Assembly (NCBI GenBank): GCA_001303025.1
Contig: LJNK01000014.1
Coordinates: 2,998 to 66,997 of the forward strand
Direction of reading: 5' to 3'
Length of the DNA: 64,000 bases
Origin: Deltaproteobacteria bacterium SG8_13
GTDB taxonomy: Bacteria; Desulfobacterota; Desulfobacteria; Desulfobacterales; SG8-13
The notes below the pieces were generated by a model. It saw only the letters and a program-made list of their open reading frames with translations. It ran no database searches and was not told where the DNA came from. This document shows positions 41,831 to 62,787 of this stretch, piece by piece. Each line of letters begins with the position of its first letter. Within the stretch, counting starts at the first letter, position 1. The position numbers and the translations under genes were made by a program.

Positions 41831-41859
41831 AAGATAAATCGGTTTTAGTCGGGTCGCAA
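41831..41859 (-). promoter_or_regulatory. sigma70 promoter of tRNA-Glu, overlapping the end of the 18-heme cytochrome gene
   Basis: TTGCGA-17 nt-TATCTT on the minus strand, 5 nt before the tRNA 5' end. Confidence 0.55.
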
Positions 41860-44239: not shown

Positions 44240-45232
44240 TCAATCAGCTATCGACAATACACTGATCTTGTTCGCACGCATTTCCACCACATACAGCCGT
44301 CGGTGCCGGCTGTCGAATGCAATTCCGACAGGAGTCGTAAATTGTTTTTTGCCGCTGTTTTCACAAACAACACCGAGGAATCGTCCCGGGGCAGTAAACA
44401 CCTGGATGAGGCCCATGTAACTGTCACTGACAAATATGCGGTCGTTTTCATCGATGGTCACGCCTTTGGGCCTGAAGAGATTTCCAGGGAGCACACCCCA
44501 TGAACCGATTTCGCTCAGAAAATTTCCGTGGGGATCAAAGACCTGGACGCGTGTATTGAGAACATCGACGACAAAAACCTGGTTGTACTGGTTAACCGCC
44601 AGCATGCCCGGGTACCTGAATTCACCAGGCCCCTCACCGAATTTGCCCCATTCGAATTCAAACCGGCCATCTTGCGAAAAAACCCGTATTTTGTGATTGT
44701 CGTTATCGGATACGTACAAGTAGCTGTTAAAATCCGATACGAGCACATCGACCGGATCGGCCGGCTTTTCGCCCGGTTTTGTTTCCACCCGAAACTGGTA
44801 TAAAAACTTCCCCGTCAGATCGAACGCCTGAATGCGATGATTGCCCGTATCGGCGATAAACACCTTGCCGTCTGCGGATATGTCGATCCCCAGCGGGCGT
44901 GCGAATTCACCGTTCCCACTGCCGTCTTTGCCGAAAGAAAAATGCCGACTGCCGTTGCTGCCGATCACCAGGATTCGGCTGTTGACGCCGTCGACCAGGT
45001 ACAGATCGCCGTTGGGCCCGATCGCGATATCGCTGGGCTGGTCGGAATCCGGTTGTATATCGAAAAGCAATCGGCCGGTGGTGCATTCCACGGCATCGGA
45101 TAGACCCGGCAGGATCAGGATAGAAAGGCTGACGATCAGATATTGTAAGATGCGGTAGGGCCGATACAAATCTTCACCTGCACCATCATCTGGATTGCCC
45201 GGGTGTCCGGATGGTTGATTTTCATGCGACAT
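44240..45232 (-). CDS. NHL-repeat beta-propeller protein
   Basis: Repeated F..P.GI...G..YV.D..N.RIQVF units after a hydrophobic N-terminal segment. Confidence 0.9.
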   Translation of the reverse strand: MSHENQPSGHPGNPDDGAGEDLYRPYRILQYLIVSLSILILPGLSDAVECTTGRLLFDIQPDSDQPSDIAIGPNGDLYLVDGVNSRILVIGSNGSRHFSFGKDGSGNGEFARPLGIDISADGKVFIADTGNHRIQAFDLTGKFLYQFRVETKPGEKPADPVDVLVSDFNSYLYVSDNDNHKIRVFSQDGRFEFEWGKFGEGPGEFRYPGMLAVNQYNQVFVVDVLNTRVQVFDPHGNFLSEIGSWGVLPGNLFRPKGVTIDENDRIFVSDSYMGLIQVFTAPGRFLGVVCENSGKKQFTTPVGIAFDSRHRRLYVVEMRANKISVLSIAD

Positions 45233-45262: not shown

Positions 45263-46093
45263 TTACTTGAACAGGGCCGGCAAGTGAAATTCCTTATATT
45301 TGGTGATCATGCCCTTGATGTTCATCTGCTGTAAATCGACCGCCCGGTTGGCCTCGAATCCGAGCGCTTCAAAATCGAGCACGCCGGTTTTCGAATGGCA
45401 AACTTCGCATTCATATCCTTTGGGCTTGATGTTTTCATGAAATTTCATCTTGAAAACATCCCGCTGTTCGGGGGAAAGTGAATCTCTGACCTTGACGAAA
45501 TCCCTGGCCAGGGGGGCATCCTGCGCCTGAATGGCCGAAACCAGCTTATCCTCTTTTTTAAAGTAGGGGGCAATCTTGGACAGAAGATCGGTCCCGGTTG
45601 CAAGGGCTCCCGTTTCGGGGTCATAGCGGGTGCCGAAAAACGGCCCGGTCGGATTTTCGTCGCCGGGATTGTACCATTTGTAAACGACGGTCTTCTCTTC
45701 GCTTTCCTTGATGTGACAGGTTTCACACACAAAGTATTGGGTGTGCATGTTGAGCAGAGAGCGTATTTTTTTGTTTTTTACGTGCGGGTAGTCGGAATGA
45801 CAGATGTAACAGGCGGGACGCTGGCCTTCAGCGAGCTGCGGGAAGTCGACGATATTGTGAAAATGCCGGTGGATTTCCAGCTCCTGAAGCCGCTTGGCTT
45901 CTTCCAAAACGGCCGATTTGTGTTCGGTGAAGTATTTTTCGACCACCGGTTTCAACAGCTCGGGACCGTGCGGAGATACGGCCAGGTGGTGCAACACACC
46001 AATGAACACCAGAAAGGTGACCGTTAGCACCACAAATCCGATGAGGTAGGCAATTTTCGGATGATCCGTTCTCTTATCGGTTGTTTGGCTCAA
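45263..46093 (-). CDS. Membrane-anchored triheme cytochrome c
   Basis: N-terminal TM; CYICH, CETCH, CEVCH; TTG start at 46093 after AGGGG, downstream of the cytochrome b stop. Confidence 0.82.
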   Translation of the reverse strand: MSQTTDKRTDHPKIAYLIGFVVLTVTFLVFIGVLHHLAVSPHGPELLKPVVEKYFTEHKSAVLEEAKRLQELEIHRHFHNIVDFPQLAEGQRPACYICHSDYPHVKNKKIRSLLNMHTQYFVCETCHIKESEEKTVVYKWYNPGDENPTGPFFGTRYDPETGALATGTDLLSKIAPYFKKEDKLVSAIQAQDAPLARDFVKVRDSLSPEQRDVFKMKFHENIKPKGYECEVCHSKTGVLDFEALGFEANRAVDLQQMNIKGMITKYKEFHLPALFK

Positions 46094-46143
46094 TTTGAGA
46101 GTCCCCCTATGACGGTTGACATGCAGTGGTGTTGCTGTCCGGT

Positions 46144-47103
46144 TTAGTGAATACGGGACAAATCGGCAATCGATACGCTTGCCGGTTTGGAAAATCCCTT
46201 CTCCTTTAGCAGGTTTTTCATATACTCTTTTTCCTCGGGGATTTCCTCGAGATTGCGAATATACTCCAGAAAGTGCTCTTCGATCTGATGTTCCCGTGTG
46301 ATCTTTCCGGTCAAAAACGCCCATTGAAATGGAAAACGACCCGGGACGAAGTGAACGTTCAGCAAATGCCAGAATGATATCACCAGCAGCGCCATCACCG
46401 CTTCATCGGCGTGCATGAGCCTTGCGAGCTCCTGAAAAAAAGCCGGGAAGGATCCCGCGCTTTTACCGGCTGCCGGCAGCAACCGTGCCAATGTTTCGGG
46501 AAATATTTTGGCCATCAAATCGGGGAAAAGCAAGGCCGCTCCGGCGGTGATCAGCACGGTATTTCCCCAGATGATGGCCAGATAATGCAGCTTTTGTTTG
46601 TACATGAATTTTTCCATTTTCGGCCGATAAGGGGCCAGGCCGAAAAAATACTTCATGTCGTGAATCAGATCGAACAGATCTTTCGGCACGGGGATTTGCG
46701 TTCTTTTGTAATCGAACTGGTTTTTCAGCAGTTTTCGAGCGGTCCCGCCGACAATGGTAATGACATGGTACAGGCAGGTAAATATCATCAAAAATGCCGC
46801 TACCCGGTGAACGATTCGGGCCGTGTCGGCGCCGCCGAACATCGATATCAAGTGAGGGGCCCAGAACAGGTCGCTGTAATACAGCGGCAGCCCTGTGAGC
46901 ACCAATACCAAAAAAGTGACGACCACCAGAAAGTGCTGGATCACGATGTGCACAGAATACCTGGGCAGATCCCCCAAAGGGTCCGAGGTCACGTATTTGT
47001 AAATGTCCCTGGGGATGTTGCCCACACCTTCCACGTGGGTGTAGTATTCTTCAGCGTCCGCCCGCTGGTCCGGCACGGCCATTGCTTCCGATGGATTCGA
47101 CAT
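46144..47103 (-). CDS. Cytochrome b subunit (FdnI/CbcB-like), quinone-interacting membrane protein
   Basis: 4 TM segments with His in QHFL, VHRV and MHADEAVMALLVISFWHLL; KFMYKQKLHY loop. Confidence 0.85.
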   Translation of the reverse strand: MSNPSEAMAVPDQRADAEEYYTHVEGVGNIPRDIYKYVTSDPLGDLPRYSVHIVIQHFLVVVTFLVLVLTGLPLYYSDLFWAPHLISMFGGADTARIVHRVAAFLMIFTCLYHVITIVGGTARKLLKNQFDYKRTQIPVPKDLFDLIHDMKYFFGLAPYRPKMEKFMYKQKLHYLAIIWGNTVLITAGAALLFPDLMAKIFPETLARLLPAAGKSAGSFPAFFQELARLMHADEAVMALLVISFWHLLNVHFVPGRFPFQWAFLTGKITREHQIEEHFLEYIRNLEEIPEEKEYMKNLLKEKGFSKPASVSIADLSRIH

Positions 47104-47121
47104 GGTACATCTCCCGGGTAG

Positions 47122-48192
47122 TTATCGGTTTTTGGGGTTTCCCCGCCATGCGGTTCCGCGGCGCAGCAGAAACTTGACACCGTCTTTCCTCCTGCCGTAG
47201 GTTTCAACGGCCATCAGTCCGACCATGCTGAACAGCGAACCATAGAGCGCCAGTCGGAAAAAAATGCTCGCGAAATAGACAATCGGATTTTTCTCCCGTT
47301 CAATGCGCGGATGGACGGCTATTTTAATAAACCAGCTGTTTGTTTGCTCATGGCATTGTCTGCAGGTGGTCATCAGGTTGTCTTTGTGAATCGTGGCCTT
47401 CACATTGTCTTTTTTGTAAATATCATGCAGTGCGTTGGAGGCGTGACAGCTAATACAATCCGCTGTCATTTCAGATCCCAGCGCGATCGATTTACCGTGG
47501 ATCGATCGGTTGTAGGTTTCCACCGCCAGCAGGGCTTCCTCGGAAACGTTTATCTTTTTCATCATTTCCCTGTCGTCGTGGCACTTGCTGCACAGCTGCA
47601 CGATTTGCTGGGGGGAGCGGGAGGTCTTTTTGCGCAGCCGGTGGGTTACGTGCATGTACGCCACTGTAACCCCCTTTTGCTCATGACAATTCAGGCAGCG
47701 CTGCAAGGTCTTTTCGTAGTCGATCAGTTTTTCTTCGACCCGTGTGTACAACGGGTTGAGATGACAGAACTTGCAATTCGGCTTGGCGGCTTTTACCTCG
47801 GGAGGATCTTCCGGTCTAACCGCATGCGCGCTTTGACTGTAGATATCGATGATCTTCGTGTGGGAGAATTTCTCCTGTGAATGGGGCGGTTTGAGATGAC
47901 ATGCGTTGGCGCAGTTTACGTCCTCGGTAACCGGATCGTGCGGTATCTTCTTGATGGAAGCGTGGCATTCGCGGCAGGCAATATTTCGGTGAACACTGCC
48001 GGCGAAGAAATGCTCATCCACATTGTAGTTGAACTGTTTGCCGTTTTCGTCGATCCGACCCAGATAGCGATATTTATGGCACATCAAACAGTTTTCTTTG
48101 TCTTGCGCCTCAGCCGGAAGGCCGATAATTAGTGTGATCCAAACGGCAGTAAAAACAAGGCAGAAATTTAGGAAGAACCTGGTTGGTCTCAA
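47122..48192 (-). CDS. Multiheme cytochrome c with C-terminal membrane anchor (CbcA-like), 7 CXXCH plus 1 CX3CH
   Basis: Signal peptide; CLMCH, CRECH, CANACH, CKFCH, CLNCH, CSKCH, CISCH, CRQCH; C-terminal TM; TTG start with GGAG (start uncertain). Confidence 0.85.
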   Translation of the reverse strand: MRPTRFFLNFCLVFTAVWITLIIGLPAEAQDKENCLMCHKYRYLGRIDENGKQFNYNVDEHFFAGSVHRNIACRECHASIKKIPHDPVTEDVNCANACHLKPPHSQEKFSHTKIIDIYSQSAHAVRPEDPPEVKAAKPNCKFCHLNPLYTRVEEKLIDYEKTLQRCLNCHEQKGVTVAYMHVTHRLRKKTSRSPQQIVQLCSKCHDDREMMKKINVSEEALLAVETYNRSIHGKSIALGSEMTADCISCHASNALHDIYKKDNVKATIHKDNLMTTCRQCHEQTNSWFIKIAVHPRIEREKNPIVYFASIFFRLALYGSLFSMVGLMAVETYGRRKDGVKFLLRRGTAWRGNPKNR

Positions 48193-48497
48193 TTTTCTTC
48201 TCCATGAAGTTTCGAAAAAGGGTGAGCCAAACAAACCGCACAACCAAAAACAAGGTGGCAAAACAATGAGCGAAAAACGGAGCCGGCGGCAAAGAACAGG
48301 TTTCGATGTGCAGGGTCAAACCGCCCCTCGGGCGCTGTGGGGTCATTGCCGGCAACTTATTCTACCCGGGAGTGCTCCTGTTGTTGCGCTACCACTTTGT
48401 GGTTTTCCTGTCAAGCAGCAGATTCTATCCAATCTGCTTTCGGACACACGGTTTTCGATTGACGATGGAAACGATACCCGGCGAACCGTGCGTGTTC

Positions 48498-49481
48498 TCA
48501 GAGCTGCCTCATCGGATGACACTTCAGGCACATGTTTCCGGTCAGCCGGTGACGGTGAGCCTCTCCGGCGCCGGCCGCCCCTGCCCGTTTGTCCGGGATT
48601 AATCCTTTTTGATGCGGGTTGTGGCAGGTCACGCACGTGACCCTGCCTTCCTGGTCGAGCGGCAAAACGATGTTGAACCGTATCTGCATCTGGGTGATCT
48701 GCGCCAGCACATCATCGGACGGTTTGCGCAGGTGTCTCTGATGCAGTGGCTGTTTGGCGGCGGTGTTGTGACATCCGATGCAAATCGCCCCGTAATTGCC
48801 GATGAGCTTCACATCCTCGGCCCCGGTCTTTTTCTCGTCTGGCACCTCCGAATGGCAGTACAAACATTTTTCTTTAACGATTTCCCCGTTTGCATTTAGT
48901 TGCTGATGGGGGTTGTACTTCGGGTACTTGTTTTTATCGTGGCATCGGAAGCAGATGTCGATTTGGTTGCCGTACGGCGCTCCCCGCAAAATTCCCTGCT
49001 TCAATATTTTGTCCGAGGGGCTGTCCTGGCACTGCTGAACGATATCGTGGCAGGTGATGCAGGTCATCTTTTTGTCTTGAAGCGGAAACCCGGTGGCGAT
49101 TTTTACATCGCCGGACGGCGGATAGTCAACCGGGTGCGGGTGCATTTTCCCGCTGTTATAATGACAGCTGCACAGGTATTGCGTGTTTCCGTCGTATTTC
49201 AAGTACGGTTCCGATTTTGCGATGGGCAGTTTTTCATGACACTCCAGGCAATATCTGCTGTCAAAGTGAATATTGGTCGTGTCGGGTATGCTGCGTTGAA
49301 CGATGACCGCTTCCTGTGAACCGGCTTGGGGGGCAGCGCCGACTTTTCGAGAAAATATGGAATCTTTCTGGTTGTACTGGCAACCGTAAACACCCCAGAT
49401 CAGCACCACGGGAGTCAACAGCGCGAGGCACCATTTGAACCGCGGCCGGTTATCGTTTTGCCGGGAAGTGAAAGTACTCAT
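48498..49481 (-). CDS. Lipoprotein multiheme cytochrome c, 7 CXXCH plus 1 CXCH
   Basis: Lipobox-like VYG-C; CLECH, CSCH, CITCH, CFRCH, CLYCH, CIGCH, CVTCH, CLKCH; start reassigned to MSTFTSRQ. Confidence 0.82.
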   Translation of the reverse strand: MSTFTSRQNDNRPRFKWCLALLTPVVLIWGVYGCQYNQKDSIFSRKVGAAPQAGSQEAVIVQRSIPDTTNIHFDSRYCLECHEKLPIAKSEPYLKYDGNTQYLCSCHYNSGKMHPHPVDYPPSGDVKIATGFPLQDKKMTCITCHDIVQQCQDSPSDKILKQGILRGAPYGNQIDICFRCHDKNKYPKYNPHQQLNANGEIVKEKCLYCHSEVPDEKKTGAEDVKLIGNYGAICIGCHNTAAKQPLHQRHLRKPSDDVLAQITQMQIRFNIVLPLDQEGRVTCVTCHNPHQKGLIPDKRAGAAGAGEAHRHRLTGNMCLKCHPMRQL

Positions 49482-51936
49482 ATTTGAATAATGCCTCCGG
49501 ACCGTGACAGTCCATGCAGATCGTGTTGTAACTCCTGTTTCGCAAAAAGCTGCTCGCGACGCTGCCAGCCGGCTTGACGGAGCCCCTGTTTTGCATTTCC
49601 CCCAAACTCCAGCGGTGCACATTATGACACGACGGGCAGGAAAGGGGGCCGTTGCCAACCTGTTTGCCGGATGCGGGGTCGAAAAGCGGAAAATAGATGC
49701 TTTCGTCTTTGATGTTTCGGCCGGTGTTGTGAATGGCGATGTCCTCCGGGTGGTAGCTGATCGCGGGAATCTTGCCCGGTGCGGATCCACGCTTGGAATG
49801 GCAACCGGTGCACATTTTTTCCATTATACTGCTTCCGGGCCCAAACCGCTGGCCCCATCGCAGCAGTTGGTTCTTGCTGTTGTGCGGCAGATGACAAACA
49901 CCGCACGGTCCTGACTCGACAGGAGTTTGGCCGGACGTGTTTTTCGCCTGCGGAGCAGCTGCAAGCAGGTTGTGATCGGTCGGCTCGATCAGGGCCTGGC
50001 TGCCGTGGCAGTCGCCGCAAAGTTGTGAGGACGGGGAAGCCGGCAGCCGCAGGAAGCTGCTGCGGGCATCTCCCTCTGTTTCGGTACCGGACATGGTTTT
50101 ACTATCGGCGGGCTGCCAGCGGTGTGGATCATGGCAGGTGTAACAGGACATTCGACCGTCCGCAGACGGGCGAACGGACGGGTCAAATACCGGCAGACGG
50201 GTCCTCATACCCATATCCCGCGGAGAAACCTGTAGCGGATGAGAATGGTCGTGAAGCTGCTTTTTGGTTGCCGGGCCGTCTTTGACATGACAACTGAAGC
50301 ACACCGGCCGCTGCTTGTTATCCTCGACCGGGGGCTGCTGTTTGGCCCACAGAAAAACCCGCCCGCCACCGTGCACCAGGTGACAGTTGTCGCACAGACC
50401 GGCTTCCGATGCTCTGCGGCCCAGCAAATTGGTTTCGGTCGGGGCACTGCGGCGCAGGTTGTGTCGGGTATCGGCGACAAGGAACTTGGCGTCGTGGCAT
50501 TGCCGGCAGATCTCCGGAGACGGTTTGCGTAAATACTGATTTTGGTTTTTGGTGCGGGGTCTTTCCCCGGTCGGTTCGGTGGCCGTATCCAGCGGAAGCC
50601 GGTGCGGATCGTGACAGGTGGCGCAGGTGATACCCCCGCCTTGGGATCGAACGCCAAAGGCAGTAAAAAGGGGAAGGATCATCTGATCCGGATCGGCCTG
50701 AGCCGATGTCAGCAGAAGTTCGTCGTCTTTTTTTTCGAAAGGATTGACGGCAAGGGGGTGGTTGTTTCCGAGCAGTTTCTCTCGGACCGCAAAAGTGCCT
50801 TCGCCGTGGCAGCTCATGCACATTTGGGTCGTGAAATCAGCGCTGCCGCTGTGTTCCCGGGCCGGTTTGTGTGGCAGGTGGCAGGCCGAACAGACGCCGG
50901 CTTCGGCAACGCTTTGTCCCTGGAGGTTTTTCGACTGCGGGGCCGATTTGTCCAGATTGTGTCCGGTCTCGGCCACTGTCTGCTTGTCGGCATGGCAGCT
51001 CAGACACAGGGTGGATTGGTTGTCATCGACCATCAGCAGCAAATGGCTGTCGGTTGGGCTGCCGTGTGTCTTGTGGCAGGTGGTGCAGATGATTTCGCCA
51101 CCTGCACCCGTGCGGGCCCCCTTTTCCATGAAAGATGCAGGAATCGAAGCGGTTGTCGGTCGGACGTTGACTACATGGCCGGGATTTCGTCGGCCGTCCG
51201 GGGTGATCAGCCCTTTATCATGGTGGCAGGCCAGGCAAAGACTCGAGTTTCGGGAGCTCTGGATCAGATAGGCTTCATGCGTCGATCCATGGGCCGTGTG
51301 ACAGGTCTCGCATGCGATGCGGCTCGGTTTCTGGCCGGCTGCCGTGCTCAATTCAAGCATGTTGTCCGGGATCCGGGTTTTCACGGGACCGACGGTGTGG
51401 TTGCGGGCCGATTTGCCGCCGTTTTTCCCGGGATGGCACATCCAGCACATGGCAGAGTCTTTGTTGGATATGCGCATGAAAATGGTGGTGTCTTCCCCGA
51501 CTCCGCTCGGAACGCCGTGGGCCGTGTGGCACGTGGCGCATTGCACCATGCCGTTGTCATCCAGCGGGAAGACGGCCGGGATGTTCATCCCTTCCGGCGG
51601 GCGGGTATTGGTCTTATGTCCGGCTCCGATCGTCATGCGTGCTCGGGAATCCATAACGCTTCCGTCATGACAGGAGATGCACATATCAGGGGTGGCGACC
51701 ACTTTTTCCGATTGATACGGCACCAGATCCGATCCTGTGCCTTCGACGAAAAAGGTGTCGACCCAGCGGTAGTGACAGATTGCGCAGCCCTTGGCCGATT
51801 TGGGGTTCTGGGGTGCAGCGGTGATCGCCCCGGCCTCAGACAGCGGCAAAAAGCCGATCGAAATGATCAGGAAAATCAGCGTTCGCATCGAATGCGGTTC
51901 GTTTCGTATGTTATGCCTGGTTGCCGGTGCGGTCAC
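49450..51936 (-). CDS. Multiheme cytochrome c, 20 CXXCH (paired-CXXCH type)
   Basis: Signal peptide (alternative start 51888); 20 CXXCH motifs counted, CAICH through CMDCH; paralog of 41845-44112. Confidence 0.93.
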   Translation of the reverse strand: MTAPATRHNIRNEPHSMRTLIFLIISIGFLPLSEAGAITAAPQNPKSAKGCAICHYRWVDTFFVEGTGSDLVPYQSEKVVATPDMCISCHDGSVMDSRARMTIGAGHKTNTRPPEGMNIPAVFPLDDNGMVQCATCHTAHGVPSGVGEDTTIFMRISNKDSAMCWMCHPGKNGGKSARNHTVGPVKTRIPDNMLELSTAAGQKPSRIACETCHTAHGSTHEAYLIQSSRNSSLCLACHHDKGLITPDGRRNPGHVVNVRPTTASIPASFMEKGARTGAGGEIICTTCHKTHGSPTDSHLLLMVDDNQSTLCLSCHADKQTVAETGHNLDKSAPQSKNLQGQSVAEAGVCSACHLPHKPAREHSGSADFTTQMCMSCHGEGTFAVREKLLGNNHPLAVNPFEKKDDELLLTSAQADPDQMILPLFTAFGVRSQGGGITCATCHDPHRLPLDTATEPTGERPRTKNQNQYLRKPSPEICRQCHDAKFLVADTRHNLRRSAPTETNLLGRRASEAGLCDNCHLVHGGGRVFLWAKQQPPVEDNKQRPVCFSCHVKDGPATKKQLHDHSHPLQVSPRDMGMRTRLPVFDPSVRPSADGRMSCYTCHDPHRWQPADSKTMSGTETEGDARSSFLRLPASPSSQLCGDCHGSQALIEPTDHNLLAAAPQAKNTSGQTPVESGPCGVCHLPHNSKNQLLRWGQRFGPGSSIMEKMCTGCHSKRGSAPGKIPAISYHPEDIAIHNTGRNIKDESIYFPLFDPASGKQVGNGPLSCPSCHNVHRWSLGEMQNRGSVKPAGSVASSFLRNRSYNTICMDCHGPEALFKYEYFHFPAKR

Positions 51937-51951
51937 GCGCGATTGTCACCA

Positions 51952-52953
51952 TCACTTCGATTCGCCGTTGATGCGGTAGACACTCACCTTGTTGGCGAGC
52001 ATCTCCACGACATATAATCGACGGTTGTGATCGATAAACAAACCGACCGGCGTTCTGAATTTTTTTACGGCACGATTCGAAGGCTCCCCCGCGACAGCGT
52101 GAAATTCGCCCATGGGGTTGAAAATCTGAATGACCCCCATATAGCTGTCGGATATGAAAACCCTGCCGGCTGGATCGATCGCAATCCCCTTGGGCCGGAA
52201 AAACTCTCCCGGTTCGACTCCCCAGTCGCCAATGGTGCCGGCGTATGTTCCTCCGGGTTTGAGCACCTGAACCCTCGTGTTGGTGACATCCACCACGTAG
52301 AGTCGTTTTTGTTTGTCCAGGGTGATCAGAAACGGATATTTGAATTCCAGTTTCGCGGTGCCCGGTTTCCCGTAGACGTCGATCAACTGTAGGTCCGACA
52401 GCCGATAGTCGAGAACGCGATGGTTGTCGTTATCGACCACGTAGCACCGGTTTCCGGCCTCATCCACAACCACGTCGGTCGGGTCCGCCGCGTGCTTGGC
52501 AGTGCCGGTGATGTTGATTTGGGCGATGAAATCACCGTCGGGTCCGAGGATTTGCACCCGATGATTTCCTGAATCGGCGATGAAGACCCTGCCGGAAGTG
52601 TCGATGTCGATTCCGAGCGGTTGACGAAATTCTCCGCTGCCGGAGCCCTCGCGGCCGAAAGAAGAGATGAACCCTCCGCTGTAGTTGAAAATTTTGATCT
52701 GGTTGTTGACACCGTCGACGACGTAAATGCGGTCGGTTGTCGATACCGCCACATCGCTGGGGGCATTGAACCGATAGGCAACATCAAACAGGTGATCGAC
52801 ATAGGTCAGACGGATTGCTTGCACCGGCGACGCGAACAACCAGAAGACGGCCAGCGCCGGAATGAGAAGGCTGCTAGCGCAAGATCGCCCGGGTTTGCCG
52901 CGGGGTTCTTTCCGGTGAAAAACCGCCTTATTGGTTTCTGAGCGGTGTTGCAT
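51952..52953 (-). CDS. NHL-repeat beta-propeller protein
   Basis: NHL units; hydrophobic signal; paralog of 44240-45232. Confidence 0.9.
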   Translation of the reverse strand: MQHRSETNKAVFHRKEPRGKPGRSCASSLLIPALAVFWLFASPVQAIRLTYVDHLFDVAYRFNAPSDVAVSTTDRIYVVDGVNNQIKIFNYSGGFISSFGREGSGSGEFRQPLGIDIDTSGRVFIADSGNHRVQILGPDGDFIAQINITGTAKHAADPTDVVVDEAGNRCYVVDNDNHRVLDYRLSDLQLIDVYGKPGTAKLEFKYPFLITLDKQKRLYVVDVTNTRVQVLKPGGTYAGTIGDWGVEPGEFFRPKGIAIDPAGRVFISDSYMGVIQIFNPMGEFHAVAGEPSNRAVKKFRTPVGLFIDHNRRLYVVEMLANKVSVYRINGESK

Positions 52954-52975
52954 CCGATCGGGTTACCCTTTCAGC

Positions 52976-53977
52976 TTAGTTTTCAAACAGCTTGGGAAAG
53001 TAAAACGTTTTGTATTTGGTCACCAATCCCTTGATGTTCAGATTGACAAGGTTGTTCGTTGTTTTTTCATCGAAGCCGAGTTTTTGAAAATCAAGGATGC
53101 TGCTGGCCGAATGGCATTCATCGCAGGCGACGCTGATCTCTTTTCTGTTGATGTTTCGGTGAAAGAATTCCAGGCGTTTTTCTTTTTCAGCCGGCATTAA
53201 GCTGGTTACCGACCGAACAAAGTCCTTCGCTTCGACGGAGTCCTGGGTGTTGACCAATGATTTTTTCTGTCCGCCGACCGGCAGAAAGACGGAGATCCTG
53301 GAGATAAAATGTTTTGATTTGCGGGCTTTTTTTAAATTGGGATTGTAGAAAGTGCCGTAAGGCTCACCGCTGAACTCGGCAATTTCGGCTCCATTCCAGT
53401 CAAAGTAGGCCCCCGGGAATTTGGCCTTGTTCAAATGGCAGACCTCGCAGACCATAAACCCGGTATGCAGGTTCAGCAGGCCGCGAACCATGTTGTTTTC
53501 ACTGTGGGGGTAGAGCTCATGACAGATCCTGCAGGAGGAGGGGTCCTGCAAAGTGGTGATCGCGGACTGTTCTTTGCGGTGAAACCGGCTCAACGGATGT
53601 TTGGCGACCAGGCGCTTTTCCTTGTCGGTAAGGTGGCATTCGGTGGTGCAGTCCACCTGCAGCTGCCCGGTGTGCGGAATCTTTTCGATGGTTGTATGGC
53701 ATTTCCGGCAGGCAAATTTTCCGTGTGACGATGCGGTGTACCTGGATTCATCGATGTGCAAAATGCTAAGCGTTTTGTCCTCTTTCACCGTGGCCAGCCC
53801 CGGATACTGGTGGCATGTCAAACATCCTTCCGGGTCCATGGCGAGGCTGCTGCCGGTAAAACCCAGCCATATCCAGACGGCGGCTGTCAGCAGGATCGGC
53901 ATGCAGTGGGGTTTCATCTCATCCACATCCATGGTCCGTATTTTCTTCTGAATGTCGTGCGTGGTGGGTTTTTTCAC
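52976..53977 (-). CDS. Periplasmic multiheme cytochrome c, 5 CXXCH plus 1 CX3CH
   Basis: Signal peptide; CLTCH, CRKCH, CTTECH, CRICH, CEVCH, CDECH. Confidence 0.87.
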   Translation of the reverse strand: MKKPTTHDIQKKIRTMDVDEMKPHCMPILLTAAVWIWLGFTGSSLAMDPEGCLTCHQYPGLATVKEDKTLSILHIDESRYTASSHGKFACRKCHTTIEKIPHTGQLQVDCTTECHLTDKEKRLVAKHPLSRFHRKEQSAITTLQDPSSCRICHELYPHSENNMVRGLLNLHTGFMVCEVCHLNKAKFPGAYFDWNGAEIAEFSGEPYGTFYNPNLKKARKSKHFISRISVFLPVGGQKKSLVNTQDSVEAKDFVRSVTSLMPAEKEKRLEFFHRNINRKEISVACDECHSASSILDFQKLGFDEKTTNNLVNLNIKGLVTKYKTFYFPKLFEN

Positions 53978-54031
53978 GCGATAGCTTCTCTTGCCTTTTT
54001 ATACCGGATTCAAGCCTCCATCCCCGGATAA

Positions 54032-54048
54032 GGCAAATACCATACCAG
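54032..54048 (-). promoter_or_regulatory. sigma54 -24/-12 promoter for the leftward cytochrome operon
   Basis: Minus strand CTGGTAT-GGTAT-TTGCC (GG-N10-GC), about 55 nt upstream of the GTG at 53977. Confidence 0.7.
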
Positions 54049-54331
54049 ATTTTGTTCCGCTTCTCTTTATGACGGCGCCCGCCACATTCTGCTCAAAAAC
54101 AGTCCCATTTTTGAGCCCACACCGGCCGGGAACCTGGGCCGCCCTTCGATCGGATGCGGGGCATACTGACCTCTGCCAACCGGCAAACCTGGTGAAATGC
54201 CCAACCGCTGGTGGGGATATCACCAGATAGATGTGGTCCTTTCGTCGGTTTTCCGTGCAGATCGCTGACAAATACTCTGGAAAGTGTACAGTGAACAAAG
54301 TGTTATCGTATGATTTTCTGCAAATTGCCAT

Positions 54332-54348
54332 TTGGCATATTCATTGCA
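54332..54348 (+). promoter_or_regulatory. sigma54 -24/-12 promoter for the rightward cytochrome operon
   Basis: TTGGCAT-ATTCA-TTGCA (GG-N10-GC), about 65 nt upstream of the TTG at 54414. Confidence 0.78.
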
Positions 54349-54413
54349 GAATGTATTACATCCTGTATGCACACGCTTCAAGTGTTTTTTGATTCCGTTC
54401 AAGGAGAAATCCA

Positions 54414-55580
54414 TTGCGGCTGAGCGCATTTATGATTGGCACAATTTTATTGGTCACGGCCTTTTGGCTGGTGGCGGGCTCCGGCACCGCCATGTCCGCC
54501 ACCGAGGCCCTGCCGGACACGGAAAACTGTTTGTTCTGCCACCGATACCCCGGCATGGGCCGGTTCGACGAATCCGGCGCCAAACGAATTTTTTATGTAA
54601 ACGACCAGCTCTTCGCCCGTTCGAACCACGGCAAACTCAAATGCACCAACTGTCACGTGGGATTGGACAAGATTCCGCACACCGACGTCAAGAAGGTCGA
54701 CTGCACCACCCAATGCCACCTGACCGAGCCCTCCACCGACCGAGAGTTTTCCCACAGCAACATGGTAAACAAATATATGGCGAGCGTGCACGGTGCGGGC
54801 GATGCCGACAATCCAAAACCTTTTCCAGAAGATTTGCCCACCTGCAAGTACTGTCACCAAAACAAGGTTCAGATGCCGATGGCAGGCTTGTGGGGAAAAA
54901 GCGAAGCGCTGGCCAATGAAACGCTGTCGCGCTGTGTCGGCTGCCACACCAAGCATCCGTGGGCCCAGAATTTTTACCTGCATTTTACCCATCGCATGCG
55001 GCGTGTCCGCAGCCAGCAGGAGATCGTCGCGCTTTGCACCAGCTGCCATGAAGACAGCGAAAAAATGGCCCGTCACGGCCTGGAAAGCATCGCGACGTTC
55101 AAGGACACTTTTCATTGGAACCTGGTCAAATACGGCGTCAAGGATGCTCCCGACTGTATCAGCTGCCACGTGCCGGTCGGCTACACGACCCACGATATCC
55201 GCCCGAAAACCGATCCGGCATCGTCCATCAACACCTTCAACCGGATCAGCACCTGCAGCAACCAGGGCGGTATCCAGTCCTGCCACCCCGGAGCGACGGC
55301 CGGCTTTGCCACCGGCCGGGTGCATGCGTACGGCACGAAAGTGCAGGTGGCCGCCGGCAAAACGAACGCCGTCGTTGAGGGTGTCGACAACACGCTGTTG
55401 ATCGAGCGGGCCGGCAAAGAAATGACCGAGGAGGAAATCTTCCGGCACACGGTGCTGTCCTACATTCGACTCTTCTACAAAGTGTTTATCCCCCTCGTTG
55501 TCGGATTTATGTTCTACCACCAGTGGATGGATTTTCTGGCAGCGCTGCGCAGAAGAAGAAAATCCCGAAAAGCGAAATGA
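54414..55580 (+). CDS. Multiheme cytochrome c with C-terminal anchor (CbcA-like), 6 CXXCH plus CX3CH and CX8CH
   Basis: AAGGAG RBS, TTG start, signal peptide; CLFCH, CTNCH, CTTQCH, CKYCH, CVGCH, CTSCH, CISCH, CSNQGGIQSCH; C-terminal TM. Confidence 0.87.
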   Translation: MRLSAFMIGTILLVTAFWLVAGSGTAMSATEALPDTENCLFCHRYPGMGRFDESGAKRIFYVNDQLFARSNHGKLKCTNCHVGLDKIPHTDVKKVDCTTQCHLTEPSTDREFSHSNMVNKYMASVHGAGDADNPKPFPEDLPTCKYCHQNKVQMPMAGLWGKSEALANETLSRCVGCHTKHPWAQNFYLHFTHRMRRVRSQQEIVALCTSCHEDSEKMARHGLESIATFKDTFHWNLVKYGVKDAPDCISCHVPVGYTTHDIRPKTDPASSINTFNRISTCSNQGGIQSCHPGATAGFATGRVHAYGTKVQVAAGKTNAVVEGVDNTLLIERAGKEMTEEEIFRHTVLSYIRLFYKVFIPLVVGFMFYHQWMDFLAALRRRRKSRKAK

Positions 55581-55596
55581 TTGGTTGCATGCAAAA

Positions 55597-56358
55597 ATGG
55601 AAGAAGCCGCCGTTGCAGAAAAAATAGACGAACCCCGCGAAGAAACCCTTCCCGCGGAGCAGCAGAAATTGCTGTTCGTGCGGTTGAACAAGCCTGAAAG
55701 ATGGCAGCATACGGTTTTCATGGGGTGTTTTATCGTGCTGGCTGTTACCGGATTTATGCTGAAGATTCCGGAAGACATTGTCCAAAAACTCGGAGGGTTT
55801 GGCGAAACCGTCTTTTTTATTCGAAGTCTTTTGCACCGAATTGCCGGCACCGTCATGATTCTCACCGCAATTTATCATCTGTTCTACCTCGTTTTCCATC
55901 CAGCCGGCCGCCGGTGGCTCTTCGATATGCTGCCGCGTCCCAAAGATCTCTTCGACCTGGTTCACAACATGCTCTATTTCATCAATGTGAAAAAAGAGCC
56001 CCCGGAATTTGACCGCTTCTCGTACAAGCACAAGATGGAATACGGCGCACTGATCCTTGGAACCACCCTGATGTCTGTAACCGGGCTGCTTTTGTGGAGC
56101 GAGTGGAGGTGGAGCAAATTTATTCTGGATATCTCCGCCCTGGTGCATGGGATGGAAGCTGTGCTGGCGTGCCTGGCCATCATCGTGTGGCACATGTACG
56201 ATATCCACTTCAAATTCCACAAATCACCTGTGGATGATGTGTGGATTACCGGAGTCATCGACGAAGAGGAGATGAAAGAGGAGCATTTGCTGCACTACAG
56301 AAAGATCATGGCAGATCCACGCCTGCAGGAGATCTACATTAAAAGAGAGAATCAATGA
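55597..56358 (+). CDS. Cytochrome b subunit (FdnI/CbcB-like)
   Basis: WQHTV, LHRIAG, VHGMEAVLACLAIIVWHMY; RFSYKHKMEY loop; paralog of 46144-47103. Confidence 0.85.
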   Translation: MEEAAVAEKIDEPREETLPAEQQKLLFVRLNKPERWQHTVFMGCFIVLAVTGFMLKIPEDIVQKLGGFGETVFFIRSLLHRIAGTVMILTAIYHLFYLVFHPAGRRWLFDMLPRPKDLFDLVHNMLYFINVKKEPPEFDRFSYKHKMEYGALILGTTLMSVTGLLLWSEWRWSKFILDISALVHGMEAVLACLAIIVWHMYDIHFKFHKSPVDDVWITGVIDEEEMKEEHLLHYRKIMADPRLQEIYIKRENQ

Positions 56359-57200
56359 AGAAAGACATCATCAAACGGGTTATCGGCAGATCGGGTCCGG
56401 GCGGGCAAAAGGATAGAAAACCGCCTTCGAAAACGGCGAAGCTGGTAATCAAAACAGCGTTCGTATTGCCGATCATTCTTTTTGCCCTGTGGCTGCTCAA
56501 GCTGGTCTACTTTCCCCATGCCGAAGCCCGCAAACATGAGTCGGTCGCCAAGCCAGCGGCAGAGCAGGGCATTTTTACGCAAATACTGCGTGACGACGGG
56601 CCGATTCCGAAAGAGCATTTTCATATCATAGACGAACACATTTCGCAGGCCGAACCCTACCACCCGATATGCCTGGAGTGTCACGGATCCTATCCCCACA
56701 GCAAGGAGAAAAAAGTTCGGGCCATCCTCAATTTTCACAACGGATTTCTCGCCTGCATGGTCTGTCATGTCCGCAAAAAACCTGACGATAAAAGTTTTTC
56801 TTTCGTGTGGGTCGACCGGCAGACCGGTGCGACTTCGATGAGAGTCGAGGGCGGATTCGGCAAGTATCCGGCCAAAATCTTTCCCATCAGGGAAACTGCC
56901 GGAAGACGCCTGGAGATCATCCACCCCGTCGATGAGAAGGCCGCCGCCGAGTTCATGAGGCTGAAAAATCAATTCTCCGCCGACCAGATGGCCAAAGCGA
57001 AGATCAAGCTGCATGAAAACATTTCCAAGAAACCGGTGTTCTGCAACGAATGCCACAAAAAAGACGGATATTTCGATTTTGCCAAACTCGGGTTTCCGGG
57101 CAACCGTGTCGATCATCTGACCTCGACGGAAATTACCGGTATGATCGAGAAATACGAAACCTTTTACATGCCGGAGACCATCGACTTTGGCTCCAAGTAA
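56355..57200 (+). CDS. Membrane-anchored triheme cytochrome c
   Basis: N-terminal TM; CLECH, CMVCH, CNECH; paralog of 45263-46093; ATGA overlap. Confidence 0.87.
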   Translation: MKKDIIKRVIGRSGPGGQKDRKPPSKTAKLVIKTAFVLPIILFALWLLKLVYFPHAEARKHESVAKPAAEQGIFTQILRDDGPIPKEHFHIIDEHISQAEPYHPICLECHGSYPHSKEKKVRAILNFHNGFLACMVCHVRKKPDDKSFSFVWVDRQTGATSMRVEGGFGKYPAKIFPIRETAGRRLEIIHPVDEKAAAEFMRLKNQFSADQMAKAKIKLHENISKKPVFCNECHKKDGYFDFAKLGFPGNRVDHLTSTEITGMIEKYETFYMPETIDFGSK

Positions 57201-57355: not shown

Positions 57356-59557
57356 ATGAAAAAGCGTATTGCCATCGTTCTAAGTGTCTGTATTTTGCTT
57401 TTTATTGCCGGCGGCATTTACATCGTCGTCACCATCAGTTCCAGCACCGCTAAGCTCGACCACCTCATTATGCTCCACCAGGTCGAAATCCTGAGAGAGC
57501 ATCTCCTGTTGCAGATTCGCAAGGTCCAATCCGATCTGATGCTCAAAGACAGTGCCTTTGCCAGCAGCGACGAAACGATTGCGGCCAACGTGCGCGCCAT
57601 GCAGATGATATCCACCACCTGCAAGGACTGTCACCACCGGCAGTCCGTGCAGAAACGGCTCGATGTGCTGATCAACGATGTCGCCGACTACAAGATGTCT
57701 CAACAGATGTTCATGGATTCCCGGAATCCGTCGAAACGCTCAGAACTTCAATCCGTAGCCTTCCGTAAAACCGAAAAACTGGAATCGATGGTCAACGGCA
57801 TGATCCACATTGCCAACAGCAAGCTCGCCGACAGCACCCAGGCATCGCTTGCCGATATCGCGCGATCAAAGACCATCCTGTACGTGCTGGTCGCCATCAC
57901 CCCGCTGATTGCCGGCGGGCTGGGTTTTTTTTTCATACGCGATCTGGCCAAACCGGTCGGTGTTCTGTTGAATGCCACCCGCCGGCTGAAAAGCGGTGAT
58001 CTGGACTATCGGGTAGAGGGGCTTTCCAAAGAGTTCGCTGAAGTGGCTACATCCTTTAACCAGATGTCCGAAGCACTGAAGCAACAATTGCTGCAGCTGC
58101 AGGAGAGCGAAAAGCGCTACCGGATGCTGTTCGAAAGTGCCGGGGATGCGATCTTCATCCTCGAGGCAGAAGGTGCGAATCGGGGCAGGATCGTGGCTGC
58201 CAACCGGGCTGCCGCAACCATGCACGGGTACACCGTGGAAGAAATGCTGAAGATGTCGATTCAGGACCTGGATGCCCCTGCCGCTGCCGAACAGGCCTCT
58301 AGAAGAATTCAGCAGATCCTTTCCGGAAAATGGATTACGGCCGAGATCGAACACATCCGACGGGACGGATCGGTTTTTCCGGTTGAAATCAGTGCGGGCC
58401 TGCTGGAACTGGAAGGCCGGAAGTATGTCCTGGCTTTTGACCGAGACATCACCGAGCGCAAGCAGATGGAGGACATGCTCCGACAGACCAAGCAGGAATG
58501 GGAAGACACCTTTGACACCATTACCGACATGATCTCCATCCACGATCGAGAATTTAACATCGTCAGGGCCAACAAGGCCGCCCAAGAGATTCTCGGCTTG
58601 CCCCTGCTGGACCACACCCGGGCCAAGTGCTACGAATACTATCACGGTAAAAACGCTCCGCCGGAGGGCTGTATCAGCTGCGAGTGTTTCAGAACCGGAG
58701 AGCCGGCCTCCTTCGAGGTGTTCGAGCCGCATCTGGACCGGCTGTTCGAGGTCCGGGCCATGCCGCGTTTCGACTCCGACCGCCGCCTGACTGCCGTGAT
58801 CCATGTGCTGCGGGACATCACCGAACGCAAACGGATCGAAGAGACGCTCCAGCGGGCCGAACAGATGAAGCTGGTCGGCGAGTGGGCCACTGCCCTGGCC
58901 CATGAAATCAAAAATCCGCTGGCCGGCATCAAGGTGTCGGTGGAAGTGCTGTCCGAGGAGCTGGAGCTGAAGGAAGACAAACAAGTGGTGAAACGGGCGG
59001 TGGAAGAAATCAAGCGAATCGAGAATCTGCTCAAGAGCCTGCTCAACTTTGCCAAACCGCCCAAACCACAGTTGAGCCAGACCGATCTAAACGACCTGCT
59101 GGACAAAACCGCGGCCTTTTCCCTAAAACAGCCGACCGTGTCAAAAAATACAGAGGGTATCATCCACATCGTCAAGGAATTCACGCCCGGCTTGCCCCAC
59201 ATTCTAGCGGACCCGATGCAGCTGCAGCAAATCTTTCTCAACCTGCTGCTTAACAGCATCGAGGCCATGCCCGACGGCGGCACCTTGCTGCTAAAAACCG
59301 ATCTCGATCCGGCCGCCAAGGCCGCCCGGATCGAGATCGCCGACACCGGCAAGGGGATCGAACTGCAGGTGCAGGAGAAGATTTTCGAACCGTTCTTCAC
59401 CACCAAAAAGAAAGGCAGCGGACTGGGGCTGGCGGTTACCAAGCGCTTGATCGAACAGCACAGGGGCGACATTCACCTGACCAGCGAACCCGGCAAGGGG
59501 ACGGTGTTTACCATCACCTTTCCCATTGAAGTCGACAGGGAGGAACAGGCCGCATGA
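57356..59557 (+). CDS. Sensor histidine kinase: periplasmic CXXCH domain, HAMP, two PAS, HisKA, HATPase
   Basis: Two TM segments flank CKDCH; HAMP (PVGVLLNATRRLKSGDL); PAS/PAC; H-box AHEIKNPL; N/G1/F/G2 boxes. Confidence 0.93.
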   Translation: MKKRIAIVLSVCILLFIAGGIYIVVTISSSTAKLDHLIMLHQVEILREHLLLQIRKVQSDLMLKDSAFASSDETIAANVRAMQMISTTCKDCHHRQSVQKRLDVLINDVADYKMSQQMFMDSRNPSKRSELQSVAFRKTEKLESMVNGMIHIANSKLADSTQASLADIARSKTILYVLVAITPLIAGGLGFFFIRDLAKPVGVLLNATRRLKSGDLDYRVEGLSKEFAEVATSFNQMSEALKQQLLQLQESEKRYRMLFESAGDAIFILEAEGANRGRIVAANRAAATMHGYTVEEMLKMSIQDLDAPAAAEQASRRIQQILSGKWITAEIEHIRRDGSVFPVEISAGLLELEGRKYVLAFDRDITERKQMEDMLRQTKQEWEDTFDTITDMISIHDREFNIVRANKAAQEILGLPLLDHTRAKCYEYYHGKNAPPEGCISCECFRTGEPASFEVFEPHLDRLFEVRAMPRFDSDRRLTAVIHVLRDITERKRIEETLQRAEQMKLVGEWATALAHEIKNPLAGIKVSVEVLSEELELKEDKQVVKRAVEEIKRIENLLKSLLNFAKPPKPQLSQTDLNDLLDKTAAFSLKQPTVSKNTEGIIHIVKEFTPGLPHILADPMQLQQIFLNLLLNSIEAMPDGGTLLLKTDLDPAAKAARIEIADTGKGIELQVQEKIFEPFFTTKKKGSGLGLAVTKRLIEQHRGDIHLTSEPGKGTVFTITFPIEVDREEQAA

Positions 59558-60948
59558 AAGAGATGCGCAAGGTGTTCTTGCTCGACGACGACGACCTGAT
59601 TATCTCCATGCTCAGCAGGGCCTTGCAAAAGGCCGGTTTCGAGGTTCAGACGGAAACCGAATCCGGCGGTGCATTGCAGAAAATCAGATCCTTCAGCCCG
59701 GATGTCGTTATGCTCGACATCAAGATGCCGAAACCCGATGGAATGGACATCTTACGGGAAATTCAGGATCTACGGATCGATACCCAGGTCGTGATGCTGA
59801 CCTCCGACGACACCGCCGAAACAGCGGTCAAGGCGATGAAACTCGGTGCGGCCGATTACCTCACCAAGCCGTTTCACACCGATGAGGTCAAGATCGTCAT
59901 CAACAACGTGATCGAAAAAGAGCGCCTGAAGCAGGAGGTGCGCTTTCTGCGCAAGGCCTACTCCGATTTTGTCGAAAAGGACATCATCGGCAGCTCCGGA
60001 GCCATTGAGAGCCTGTTGGAGAAGGTGGATCGCATCGCCAAGGCCCGGGTCAACAACATCCTGATTACCGGGGAGAGCGGAACGGGCAAGGAAGTCGTGG
60101 CCCGGCACATTCACAACCTGATGTTCGAGCAGAGCGGCAGCGGGCATGCGCCGTTTATCTCCGTCAACTGTGCAGCAATGCCCGAATCACTGTTGGAAAG
60201 TGAGTTGTTCGGTTACATCAAGGGCTCTTTTACCGATGCGAAGTCCGACAAGAAAGGCCTGTTCGAACTGGCCTCCGGCGGTTCGATCCTGCTGGACGAG
60301 ATCGGTGAGATGAAAATGGATTTGCAGAGCAAACTGCTGCGGGTGCTGGAAGATCGAACCATCCGAAGAATCGGTGGAAAAAGCGAGATGCCCATCGATG
60401 CCACGGTGATTGCCACCACCAACAAAAACCTTTCCGATGCGGTGAGCAATGGAGAGTTTCGTAAAGACCTGTTTTTCCGCCTCAGCACGTTTTACCTGCA
60501 TATCGTCCCCCTGCGGGAGCGAAGGGAGGACATTGCGCCGCTGGCCGATCACTTCCTGAAAATTTTTACGACCAAATACAACAACCGTTGTATTAAGGGC
60601 TTTACCCCGGAGGCCGGGCGGGTGCTCCGGTCCGCCAGCTGGCCCGGGAATGTGCGCGAGTTGAAAAACCTGATCGAACGGATCGTTGTGCTGGAAAACA
60701 CGGAAATGATCGGTCCCGAACACATACCCGGCTGGATCACCGGTGGGACCATGTACAACGGACCCAAACCCAGCAACGGGTTTCAGCTTCCGGATTCGGG
60801 CATCGACTTGGAAAACCTGGAGAAAAACCTGATTCAGCAGGCCCTGAAAAAGGCGGAAAACAACAAGGCCCTTGCCGCCAAGCTGCTGAACATCAGCTAC
60901 GACAGCCTTCGCTACCAGGTAAAAAAATTCGGCCTGGAAGGCGGTTAA
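59554..60948 (+). CDS. sigma54-dependent response regulator (NtrC family)
   Basis: Receiver (LLDDDD, MLDIKMP, KPF); AAA+ (GESGTGKE, ESELFG-GSFTDA, LDEIGE, WPGNVREL); Fis-type HTH. Confidence 0.95.
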   Translation: MKEMRKVFLLDDDDLIISMLSRALQKAGFEVQTETESGGALQKIRSFSPDVVMLDIKMPKPDGMDILREIQDLRIDTQVVMLTSDDTAETAVKAMKLGAADYLTKPFHTDEVKIVINNVIEKERLKQEVRFLRKAYSDFVEKDIIGSSGAIESLLEKVDRIAKARVNNILITGESGTGKEVVARHIHNLMFEQSGSGHAPFISVNCAAMPESLLESELFGYIKGSFTDAKSDKKGLFELASGGSILLDEIGEMKMDLQSKLLRVLEDRTIRRIGGKSEMPIDATVIATTNKNLSDAVSNGEFRKDLFFRLSTFYLHIVPLRERREDIAPLADHFLKIFTTKYNNRCIKGFTPEAGRVLRSASWPGNVRELKNLIERIVVLENTEMIGPEHIPGWITGGTMYNGPKPSNGFQLPDSGIDLENLEKNLIQQALKKAENNKALAAKLLNISYDSLRYQVKKFGLEGG

Positions 60949-62659: not shown

Positions 62660-62787
62660 CCGAAGTTCCTTTACGCTGTCAGCGCCGGTCATCCCGGAGC
62701 AGGTTTGTTTTCCGGTCTTCCTATTTTTATCCCAATCCGCACCCGGGGTCAACACCAACGGAAACCTCATACGGCAGGTTTCGCCGT

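Follow-up and report, generated by a model that had tools for sequence, protein, structure and literature searches.

Which kind of membrane complex is encoded by the two cytochrome modules of Deltaproteobacteria bacterium SG8_13, and do the two copies serve different purposes? The window, a stretch of 64,000 nucleotides of contig LJNK01000014.1, contains two three-gene units in opposite orientation, at 48192-45263 on the reverse (-) and at 54414-57200 on the forward (+) strand. All of their open reading frames (ORFs) are intact. As the original prediction had described, both units have the same gene order: A encodes a C-terminally anchored octahaem c-type cytochrome, B a dihaem cytochrome b of the FdnI type and C an N-terminally anchored trihaem cytochrome. 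The evidence favours, with a probability of roughly three in four, that each triplet encodes an inner-membrane quinol:cytochrome c oxidoreductase which is composed of three subunits, belongs to the CbcL/MtrH/MtoC lineage, exchanges electrons with periplasmic carriers of its own and is probably subject to sigma-54 control via adjacent regulators.

CbcL (GSU0274) is known from Geobacter sulfurreducens (Zacharoff 2016), and the CbcL/MtrH/MtoC family was surveyed by Zhong & Shi 2018 (PMC6295460). Geobacter-type genomes were located in the phylum sample by means of PpcA, with a query whose best match was 86% identical and which revealed five paralogs. Family f21 of this sample has no PpcA, and no Geobacter is present among the 14 named control genomes. 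The G102 locus agrees gene for gene with the published Cbc5 cluster (10.1101/2021.04.15.440034; PMC13591261): its products are a kinase that carries one haem motif, an NtrC-type activator encoded divergently, a CbcA with 7 haems and a C-terminal transmembrane (TM) helix, a CbcB of 230 residues, a 12-haem CbcC and a one-haem CbcD. The CbcL ortholog has 633 residues with nine CXXCH motifs followed by six TM helices, as in the published CbcL. With the B-family profile, three CbcL orthologs scored 207-219 bits (E 1e-62 to 1e-66) while CbcB reached 36 bits, and the A-family profile gave 80-86 bits for CbcL but 20-31 bits for CbcA. When the CbcL orthologs were compared directly with the proteins of the window by BLAST, the identity was 26% for A1 (E 2e-23) and 27-28% for B1 (E 5e-23 and 1.5e-21). 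In a phylogeny built on B that included CbcL and CbcB, as the original prediction had suggested, the CbcL clade is nested among the family of the window whereas CbcB is a distant outgroup. Because of the profile scores and the position of CbcL in the B tree, the modules are assigned to split CbcL/MtrH/MtoC-type complexes rather than to relatives of CbcBA, and the label "CbcA-like" that they had been given had to be abandoned.

At first sight, several features speak for CbcBA (Cbc5; GSU0593-0594; Joshi 2021, 10.1101/2021.04.15.440034), of which the modules would then be orthologs or paralogs acting as very-low-potential quinol oxidases. CbcBA has the same two-gene layout of a multihaem c-type cytochrome with a C-terminal TM helix followed by a PF01292 cytochrome b, it shows sigma-54 dependent expression, as is predicted for the window, and an NtrC-type activator as well as a haem-motif kinase adjoin both systems. 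Moreover, the TM histidine of A2 is as reported for CbcA (10.1101/2021.04.15.440034). However, the true CbcA and CbcB matched the window modules by BLAST only with E values of 1e-6 and 7e-4. In addition, Cbc5 does not contain a homolog of C, since its partners, the soluble dodecahaem CbcC and the monohaem CbcD, are unrelated to it (the C profile gave E > 2 with CbcD and no match with CbcL). An identity with CbcBA was ruled out by these marginal scores against the true Cbc5 cluster, and the kinship proposed for the two systems is very unlikely.

By contrast, the modules and CbcL (GSU0274; PMC6295460) have in common a multihaem c domain that a TM helix connects to a dihaem b bundle of the FdnI type, and the conserved histidines of the bundle follow the same pattern. 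Further common traits are the association with cytochromes of extracellular electron transfer, the occurrence in many phyla and the strong homology of both parts. CbcL is a menaquinol oxidase in Geobacter, and CbcL/MtoC/MtrH homologs exist both in organisms that reduce Fe(III) and in those that oxidise Fe(II) (10.1101/2021.04.15.440034; PMC6295460). The family is widespread and includes fused proteins of 416-1034 residues with 3 to 23 haem motifs (PMC6295460). What separates CbcL from the window modules is, first, the fusion of its c and b domains with a total of six TM helices, whereas A and B are separate genes; second, its nine haem motifs instead of the eight of A, which include CX3CH and CX8CH; third, a bare sixth TM helix at its end, where the window modules always possess a membrane-anchored trihaem subunit; and finally the host, which in our case is a dsrAB organism. 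An extra bare C-terminal TM helix following cytochrome b is restricted to the CbcL clade (L038, L040, L043-45) and absent from the remaining lineages that lack C. In these proteins (L043:8129-10030, L044, L045, L038:1896-2873 and L040:8141-9079), the helix sits where the anchor of C lies in natural B-C fusions. No sequence similarity between the bare sixth TM helix of CbcL and C was detectable, and it is speculative that this helix is a remnant of the anchor of a lost trihaem subunit.

The A proteins had been described as cytochromes with about eight haems. A1 (47122-48192, -), which carries a signal peptide and a C-terminal TM anchor, contains seven CXXCH motifs and one CX3CH (CANACH), while A2 (54414-55580, +) has six CXXCH, one CX3CH (CTTQCH) and one CX8CH (C281..C290-H291). 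This count is correct, as all eight motif columns are conserved in an alignment of 33 family members. The predicted start of A1 is a TTG at 48192 preceded by GGAG, which gives a signal peptide beginning with MRPTRFF. Three types of modules can be distinguished, types 1 and 2 represented by the two window modules and type 3 found in relatives. The anchoring helix of the A2 type retains a histidine (H369, "HQxLD"), and this type also has an insert of approximately 40 residues. CbcL likewise has a histidine after its first TM helix, but the anchors of the A1 type and of type 3 are devoid of a TM histidine. Another histidine (H221 of A2, "RHGL") is conserved in types 2 and 3 and missing in A1 and most type-1 proteins. 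It is not certain to be a haem ligand, since nine conserved non-motif histidines face eight haems.

B1 (46144-47103, -) and B2 (55597-56358, +) are four-TM dihaem cytochromes of the FdnI/HydC type. B2 matches PF01292 at 64.5 bits (cut-off 30.1). B1, though 30% identical to B2, remains under this cut-off with 23.4 bits, and both proteins match formate-dehydrogenase gamma models (TIGR01583) weakly and far under the equivalog cut-offs. The start of B2 is probably the ATG at 55597, 17 nucleotides past the A2 stop, as a longer ORF from 55498 overlaps A2. In the family alignment, His 71, 113, 217 and 232 of B2 are conserved to 100% and His 127 to 93%; the corresponding residues of B1 are His 57, 99, 113, 231 and 246. 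Thus, the membrane helices of B contain conserved histidines for two b haems, in the same pattern as in the CbcL ortholog. FdnI and HydC (HyaC) share this fold family (PF01292, TIGR01583) and have histidines in TM1, TM2 and, about 15 residues apart, two in TM4.

Since the FdnI/HydC family usually provides the anchors of formate dehydrogenases and hydrogenases, the triplet might be an ordinary membrane anchor or wire for a periplasmic catalytic enzyme (Mo/W, NiFe or octahaem). However, the partner of B in the window is a pair of multihaem cytochromes and not an Fe-S/Mo or Ni enzyme. A pairing with a catalytic Mo/Ni subunit at other loci, named in advance as counter-evidence, was not encountered either: in none of approximately 27 A-B-C loci did a Mo, NiFe or other catalytic gene adjoin the triplet, and formate dehydrogenase or hydrogenase catalytic genes were absent beside it at every examined locus. 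Even the farthest loci have housekeeping genes, propellers or cytochromes at this position. The constant neighbours of the triplet are NHL beta-propellers and cytochromes with 11 to 31 haems. At one locus of a metagenome-assembled genome (MAG) of the Gammaproteobacteria (L021:5977-8588), A-B-C stands alone between housekeeping genes without NHL or giant cytochrome. The assumption of an ordinary dehydrogenase anchor is unsupported because no catalytic gene lies beside the triplet, and it is extremely unlikely. The host possesses two more PF01292 cytochrome b genes (94-97 bits) on another contig (G000:C72:78265-78822 and 81169-81726), 3 kb apart, which are presumably anchors of hydrogenases or formate dehydrogenases.

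The third part of the modules is the trihaem protein, C1 (45263-46093, -; predicted start TTG at 46093 after AGGGGGA) and C2 (56355-57200, +). Exactly three CXXCH motifs are present in C1, C2 and in all 32 C homologs from fetched loci. In a 30-sequence alignment, H90, H115, N126 and H128 along with the three CXXCH are invariant and H88 and H220 are conserved to at least 90%, so that the shared motifs HFH, YPH.K...R..LN.H and HENI noted earlier are real. Because of the three CXXCH and the invariant His90, His115 and His128, three bis-His haems are possible in C. It had been suggested that this protein is a defining third component of the complex type, and three lines of evidence agree with this. 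First, among the places with a listed B match, 25 pairs from 19 genomes have C directly behind the 3' end of B and in the same orientation. C likewise adjoins B at all 19 loci retrieved with C2 and at all type-II loci retrieved with B2. Secondly, the B and C trees show the same clades with the same members. The type-1 clade contains the window, a gammaproteobacterial MAG and G035 in both trees, the type-3 clade unites seven or eight loci that recur in both, and the type-2 clade has identical subclades. Thirdly, natural fusions exist. B and C are fused at three loci (L013, L019, L029) and in at least ten cluster representatives, A and B (of the A1-B1 type) at L028, A and C in P0153, and there are full A-B-C fusions of 861-908 residues (P0170, P0168, P0182, P0257). 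The order of the fused parts matches the topology: a periplasmic A, a TM helix running inward, the four-helix B with both ends inside, a TM helix running outward and a periplasmic trihaem domain. On account of the adjacency to B, the co-phylogeny and the fusions, it is well supported that C would be a genuine third subunit rather than a mere neighbour.

It is conceivable that C is instead an independent membrane-tethered carrier, or a quinol dehydrogenase similar to NapC/CymA, that merely shares the operon. C has a TM anchor of its own and could diffuse in the membrane, and Geobacter CbcL-type proteins work without it. This contrasts with the repeated independent fusions to B and A-B, the strict 3' adjacency to B and the congruence of the trees. 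Besides, searches with family models and PDB sequences revealed no similarity of C to the NapC/NrfH families. Such an independent role is very improbable. At another locus (G289:C19:22614-23372), a C homolog directly after B is interrupted by six in-frame stops (three TGA, one TAG, two TAA) and seems to be degenerating while intact copies lie next to it. Foldseek comparison of an AlphaFold2 (AF2) model of C2 with the PDB gave no match with E < 1, and PDB sequence searches with A2, B2 and C2 did not retrieve any relative of solved structure. The modelled fold of C may be either new or not captured without haems. No published description of a separate trihaem subunit or of a three-gene split form was found, subscription journals being outside the search.

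How widespread is this arrangement? A search of species genomes with C2 returned 19 loci, which belong to Desulfobacterales-labelled MAGs, a MAG of Desulfosudis oleivorans, one Nitrospinaceae-labelled and two Gammaproteobacteria-labelled genomes, and the order A, B, C was kept in every locus that was long enough. Many of the relatives possess two triplets in tandem, in which a type-3 unit (A'B'C', with about 37% identity to module 2) precedes an ortholog of module 2; genes for an X333-like protein, an NHL propeller and a 20-haem cytochrome come next. One locus (L007) harbours all three module types together, while relatives carry differing combinations of them. A relative of B2 was detected in 149 of 400 phylum genomes. 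The 20 B2 loci that were fetched fall cleanly into two kinds: in one, A has six CXXCH (plus CX3CH) and the locus contains C and NHL/giant cytochromes; in the other, A has 9-13 CXXCH and C is missing from the locus. The C profile matched in 28 of 401 phylum genomes at E <= 1e-8, in 23 of these below 1e-30. Among 1.84 billion cluster representatives, it hit 631 clusters (counted at 50% identity) at E <= 1e-3 and 116 at E <= 1e-30. In the host genome itself, a 3.8 Mb MAG that is 91% complete, no further C homolog was found outside the window. The order to which the window belongs was represented by 13 sampled genomes; none of these contained the trihaem family, and only two had a weak relative of B. 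The loci closest to the window come from MAGs bearing other labels than this order, and the cytochrome cluster may have been acquired horizontally.

The two modules of the window are clearly but distantly related. Pairwise BLASTP revealed 33% identity over 312 residues for A1/A2 (E 1.7e-52), 30% over 248 residues for B1/B2 (E 1.3e-28) and 33% over 202 residues for C1/C2 (E 4e-34). These identities of 30-33% with E values of 1e-28 to 1e-52 are far past chance, and the diverged paralogy assumed in the original prediction thus applies to the whole three-gene unit. Judging by the sequences, however, the duplication is wider than had been noted and includes NHL propellers, giant cytochromes and a third C-like domain. 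Downstream of C1, genes are located for a six-bladed NHL beta-propeller with an N-terminal hydrophobic segment (NHL330, 44240-45232, -; PF01436, 96 bits) and for a periplasmic cytochrome with 18 haems (41845-44112, -). Their counterparts associated with module 2 are NHL333 (51952-52953, -), 43% identical to NHL330, and a periplasmic 20-haem cytochrome (49450-51936, -) with 34% identity to the 18-haem protein (E 6e-111). The first gene of the divergent operon of module 2 encodes a hexahaem chimera, X333 (52976-53977, -). At the N-terminus it is similar to the part of A with the first three haems, including CX3CH (39% identity to A1, E 2e-16), and the C-terminal two thirds represent a C-type trihaem domain (35% to C1, E 4e-39). 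In the C tree, X333-type domains form a clade of 17 members that is sister to the C1 type. The chimera is kept in 16 related loci, each time beside an NHL propeller and a 20-haem cytochrome; by imitating both arms, it might bind to the A-B-C complex. After the 20-haem gene comes that of the heptahaem cytochrome Y430 (48498-49400, -). Its listed ORF (48498-49790) overlaps the 20-haem gene by 340 nucleotides, and the true start probably lies within this ORF near MSTFTSRQ; because of a lipoprotein-like N-terminus (LIWGVYGC), Y430 may be lipid-anchored. From the paralogous NHL proteins and giant cytochromes and the X333 chimera it follows that the locus would contain two complete systems, the first predicted to consist of A1-B1-C1-NHL330-18 haem and the second of A2-B2-C2 facing the divergent X333-NHL333-20 haem-Y430.

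Six-bladed NHL proteins beside cytochromes with 16-26 haems are also known from Desulfovibrio ferrophilus (DFE_0448-0465, PMC5815863), the SEEP-SRB1 operon (PMC5539420) and the Uet cluster of Tenderia (10.1101/2022.05.06.490989). For such clusters of sulfate reducers and electrotrophs, extracellular electron exchange has been proposed (PMC5815863; PMC5539420; 10.1101/2022.05.06.490989). The likeness rests on the published descriptions, which, by contrast to the window, do not include an A-B-C inner-membrane module.

To what extent is the locus regulated by redox conditions? A sigma-54 type -24/-12 element, TGGCATATTCATTGCA (54333-54348, +), lies 65 nucleotides upstream of A2, and a weaker one on the other strand, TGGTATGGTATTTGCC (54032-54047, -), 54 nucleotides upstream of X333. 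Elements of this class (at least nine of 11 consensus positions, GG-N10-GC) also precede the first operon genes at nine other loci (L005, L007, L008, L013, L017, L018, L019, L020, L021). The solitary gammaproteobacterial triplet of L021 has its own sigma-54-like element, TGGCAATACCGTTGCT, 75 nucleotides upstream. Sigma-70 and terminator scans did not exceed the background level. On the 3' side of C2, a sensor histidine kinase (57356-59557, +; HAMP, PAS, HisKA, HATPase) with a periplasmic CXXCH (TTCKDCH) is followed by an NtrC-type sigma-54 activator (59554-60948, +; receiver, AAA+, HTH_8). The same pair was found after the triplet at L005, L012 and L037, and at L004, where the contig ends, only the kinase. 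The kinases of L005, L012 and L037 have one CXXCH each, and the Geobacter-type Cbc5 kinase (L046:4299-5948) also contains a periplasmic CXXCH. It seems that such cytochrome operons are repeatedly accompanied by a kinase that senses haem. Together, the conserved putative sigma-54 promoters and the haem-motif kinase/activator pair point to redox-regulated expression.

Taking these data together, each triplet would function as follows. B would be a four-helix bundle with two b haems and a menaquinone site. A would expose eight c haems to the periplasm and pack on B with its C-terminal helix, while C would contribute three further bis-His c haems and attach with its N-terminal helix to the other end of B. 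Menaquinol or menaquinone would react at B, whose two b haems would conduct electrons across the membrane. The b haem on the periplasmic side would exchange electrons with c haems in A, in C or in both, from where they would pass on to X333, Y430, the NHL propeller and the 18- or 20-haem cytochrome. Transcription would probably start from the sigma-54 promoters and be controlled by the neighbouring NtrC-type activator together with the kinase that bears a haem motif.

Some observations weigh against this interpretation. Many CbcL-type lineages, the Geobacter CbcL among them, function without C, for which reason C is dispensable for the core function. The activator and the kinase core share 40% and 36% identity, respectively, with the Geobacter Cbc5 regulators, which is only the generic family level. 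The gap of 305 nucleotides in front of A1 gave no promoter signal in sigma-54 or sigma-70 scans; module 1 may be transcribed by read-through from the X333 promoter. The AF2 model of C2, an N-terminal helix and a mixed alpha/beta domain, is of moderate quality (predicted local distance difference test score, pLDDT, 74). Finally, the CbcL and Cbc5 references were assigned by means of PpcA and of gene architectures, which agree exactly with the literature.

The direction of electron flow deserves particular consideration. The host genome contains dsrA (614 bits) and an adjoining dsrB-like gene, which identify the organism as a sulfate or sulfite reducer, and in a dsrAB organism the CbcL-type complexes may catalyse quinone reduction by external electrons as well as quinol oxidation. 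In Fdh-N, the quinone site of FdnI is located on the cytoplasmic side. If, as we infer, B has its site at the same position, energy would be conserved when electrons from the periplasm reduce quinone and dissipated when quinol is oxidised. Reports of low yields for CbcL in Geobacter (10.1101/2022.08.31.506072) are consistent with the latter. Energy-conserving quinone reduction, on the other hand, would make an uptake role plausible in a sulfate reducer; electron uptake has been proposed for CbcBA in Seep-SRB2 (PMC10553843). According to the cited literature, the gap between b haem and first c haem is possibly the main barrier in CbcL. It is a speculation that a trihaem arm beside B could shorten or duplicate this step.

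Are the two copies specialised? In the B tree, B1 and B2 belong to different clades which are separated by lineages without C and by CbcL, and each has orthologs in other phyla. The separate clades with orthologs of their own indicate that the modules were kept or acquired as distinct types and are not recent duplicates. It is nevertheless possible that the copies are redundant and differ only by partner specificity or drift, without any tuning. Both have retained all eight plus three c-haem motifs and the same five conserved histidines of B, and no measured property separates the two modules. Contrary to this, related genomes combine the three module types in different ways, the TM histidine and H221 are present in A2 and absent from A1 (A1-type proteins lack the former and mostly the latter), the promoter context differs, and each module is equipped with its own NHL/giant-cytochrome set. 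The clades, the histidine differences of A and the separate sets make redundancy less likely, and we regard it as improbable, even though different potentials or directions, as suggested in the original prediction, are not thereby shown. A more far-reaching proposal is a hitherto overlooked respiratory c-b-c machine, in which one FdnI-type dihaem b core would bear separate periplasmic arms of eight and three haems. The two module types would be oppositely biased, one to menaquinol oxidation and export, the other to a Qrc-like, energy-conserving menaquinone reduction and uptake, and a haem-sensing kinase would switch both of them via sigma-54. This proposal is about as improbable as redundancy.

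The cytochrome locus is bordered by three genes at 60985-63996 (-) that converge on it. One of them (62069-62791) belongs to the GNA1162-like lipoprotein family (PF05643, 39.6 bits; cut-off 25.9), and another (60985-62118) matches PF05643 at 17.7 bits and hence under the cut-off. A 402-residue protein in this group did not match any Pfam family, and at 60985-63996 no gene could be recognised as a porin that might form part of an outer-membrane conduit.

Geobacter has three gates in the inner membrane, among them CbcL, which determine the energy that it retains at a given acceptor potential. To our knowledge, the mechanism of CbcL, including the redox "shut-off", has not been solved. According to the present analysis, a large branch of the CbcL family would consist of three subunits with an extra trihaem arm. 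This branch comprises the 631 clusters and about 6% of the sampled phylum genomes, travels with NHL-propeller/giant-cytochrome sets and extends to MAGs labelled Gammaproteobacteria and Nitrospinaceae. It alters what one would annotate in sulfate reducers as the putative quinone-linked site at which electrons enter or leave in extracellular electron transfer. The natural split and fused versions would be useful for structural work, and the presence of two module types in one genome offers a natural experiment on how a potential window or a direction of electron flow may be encoded.

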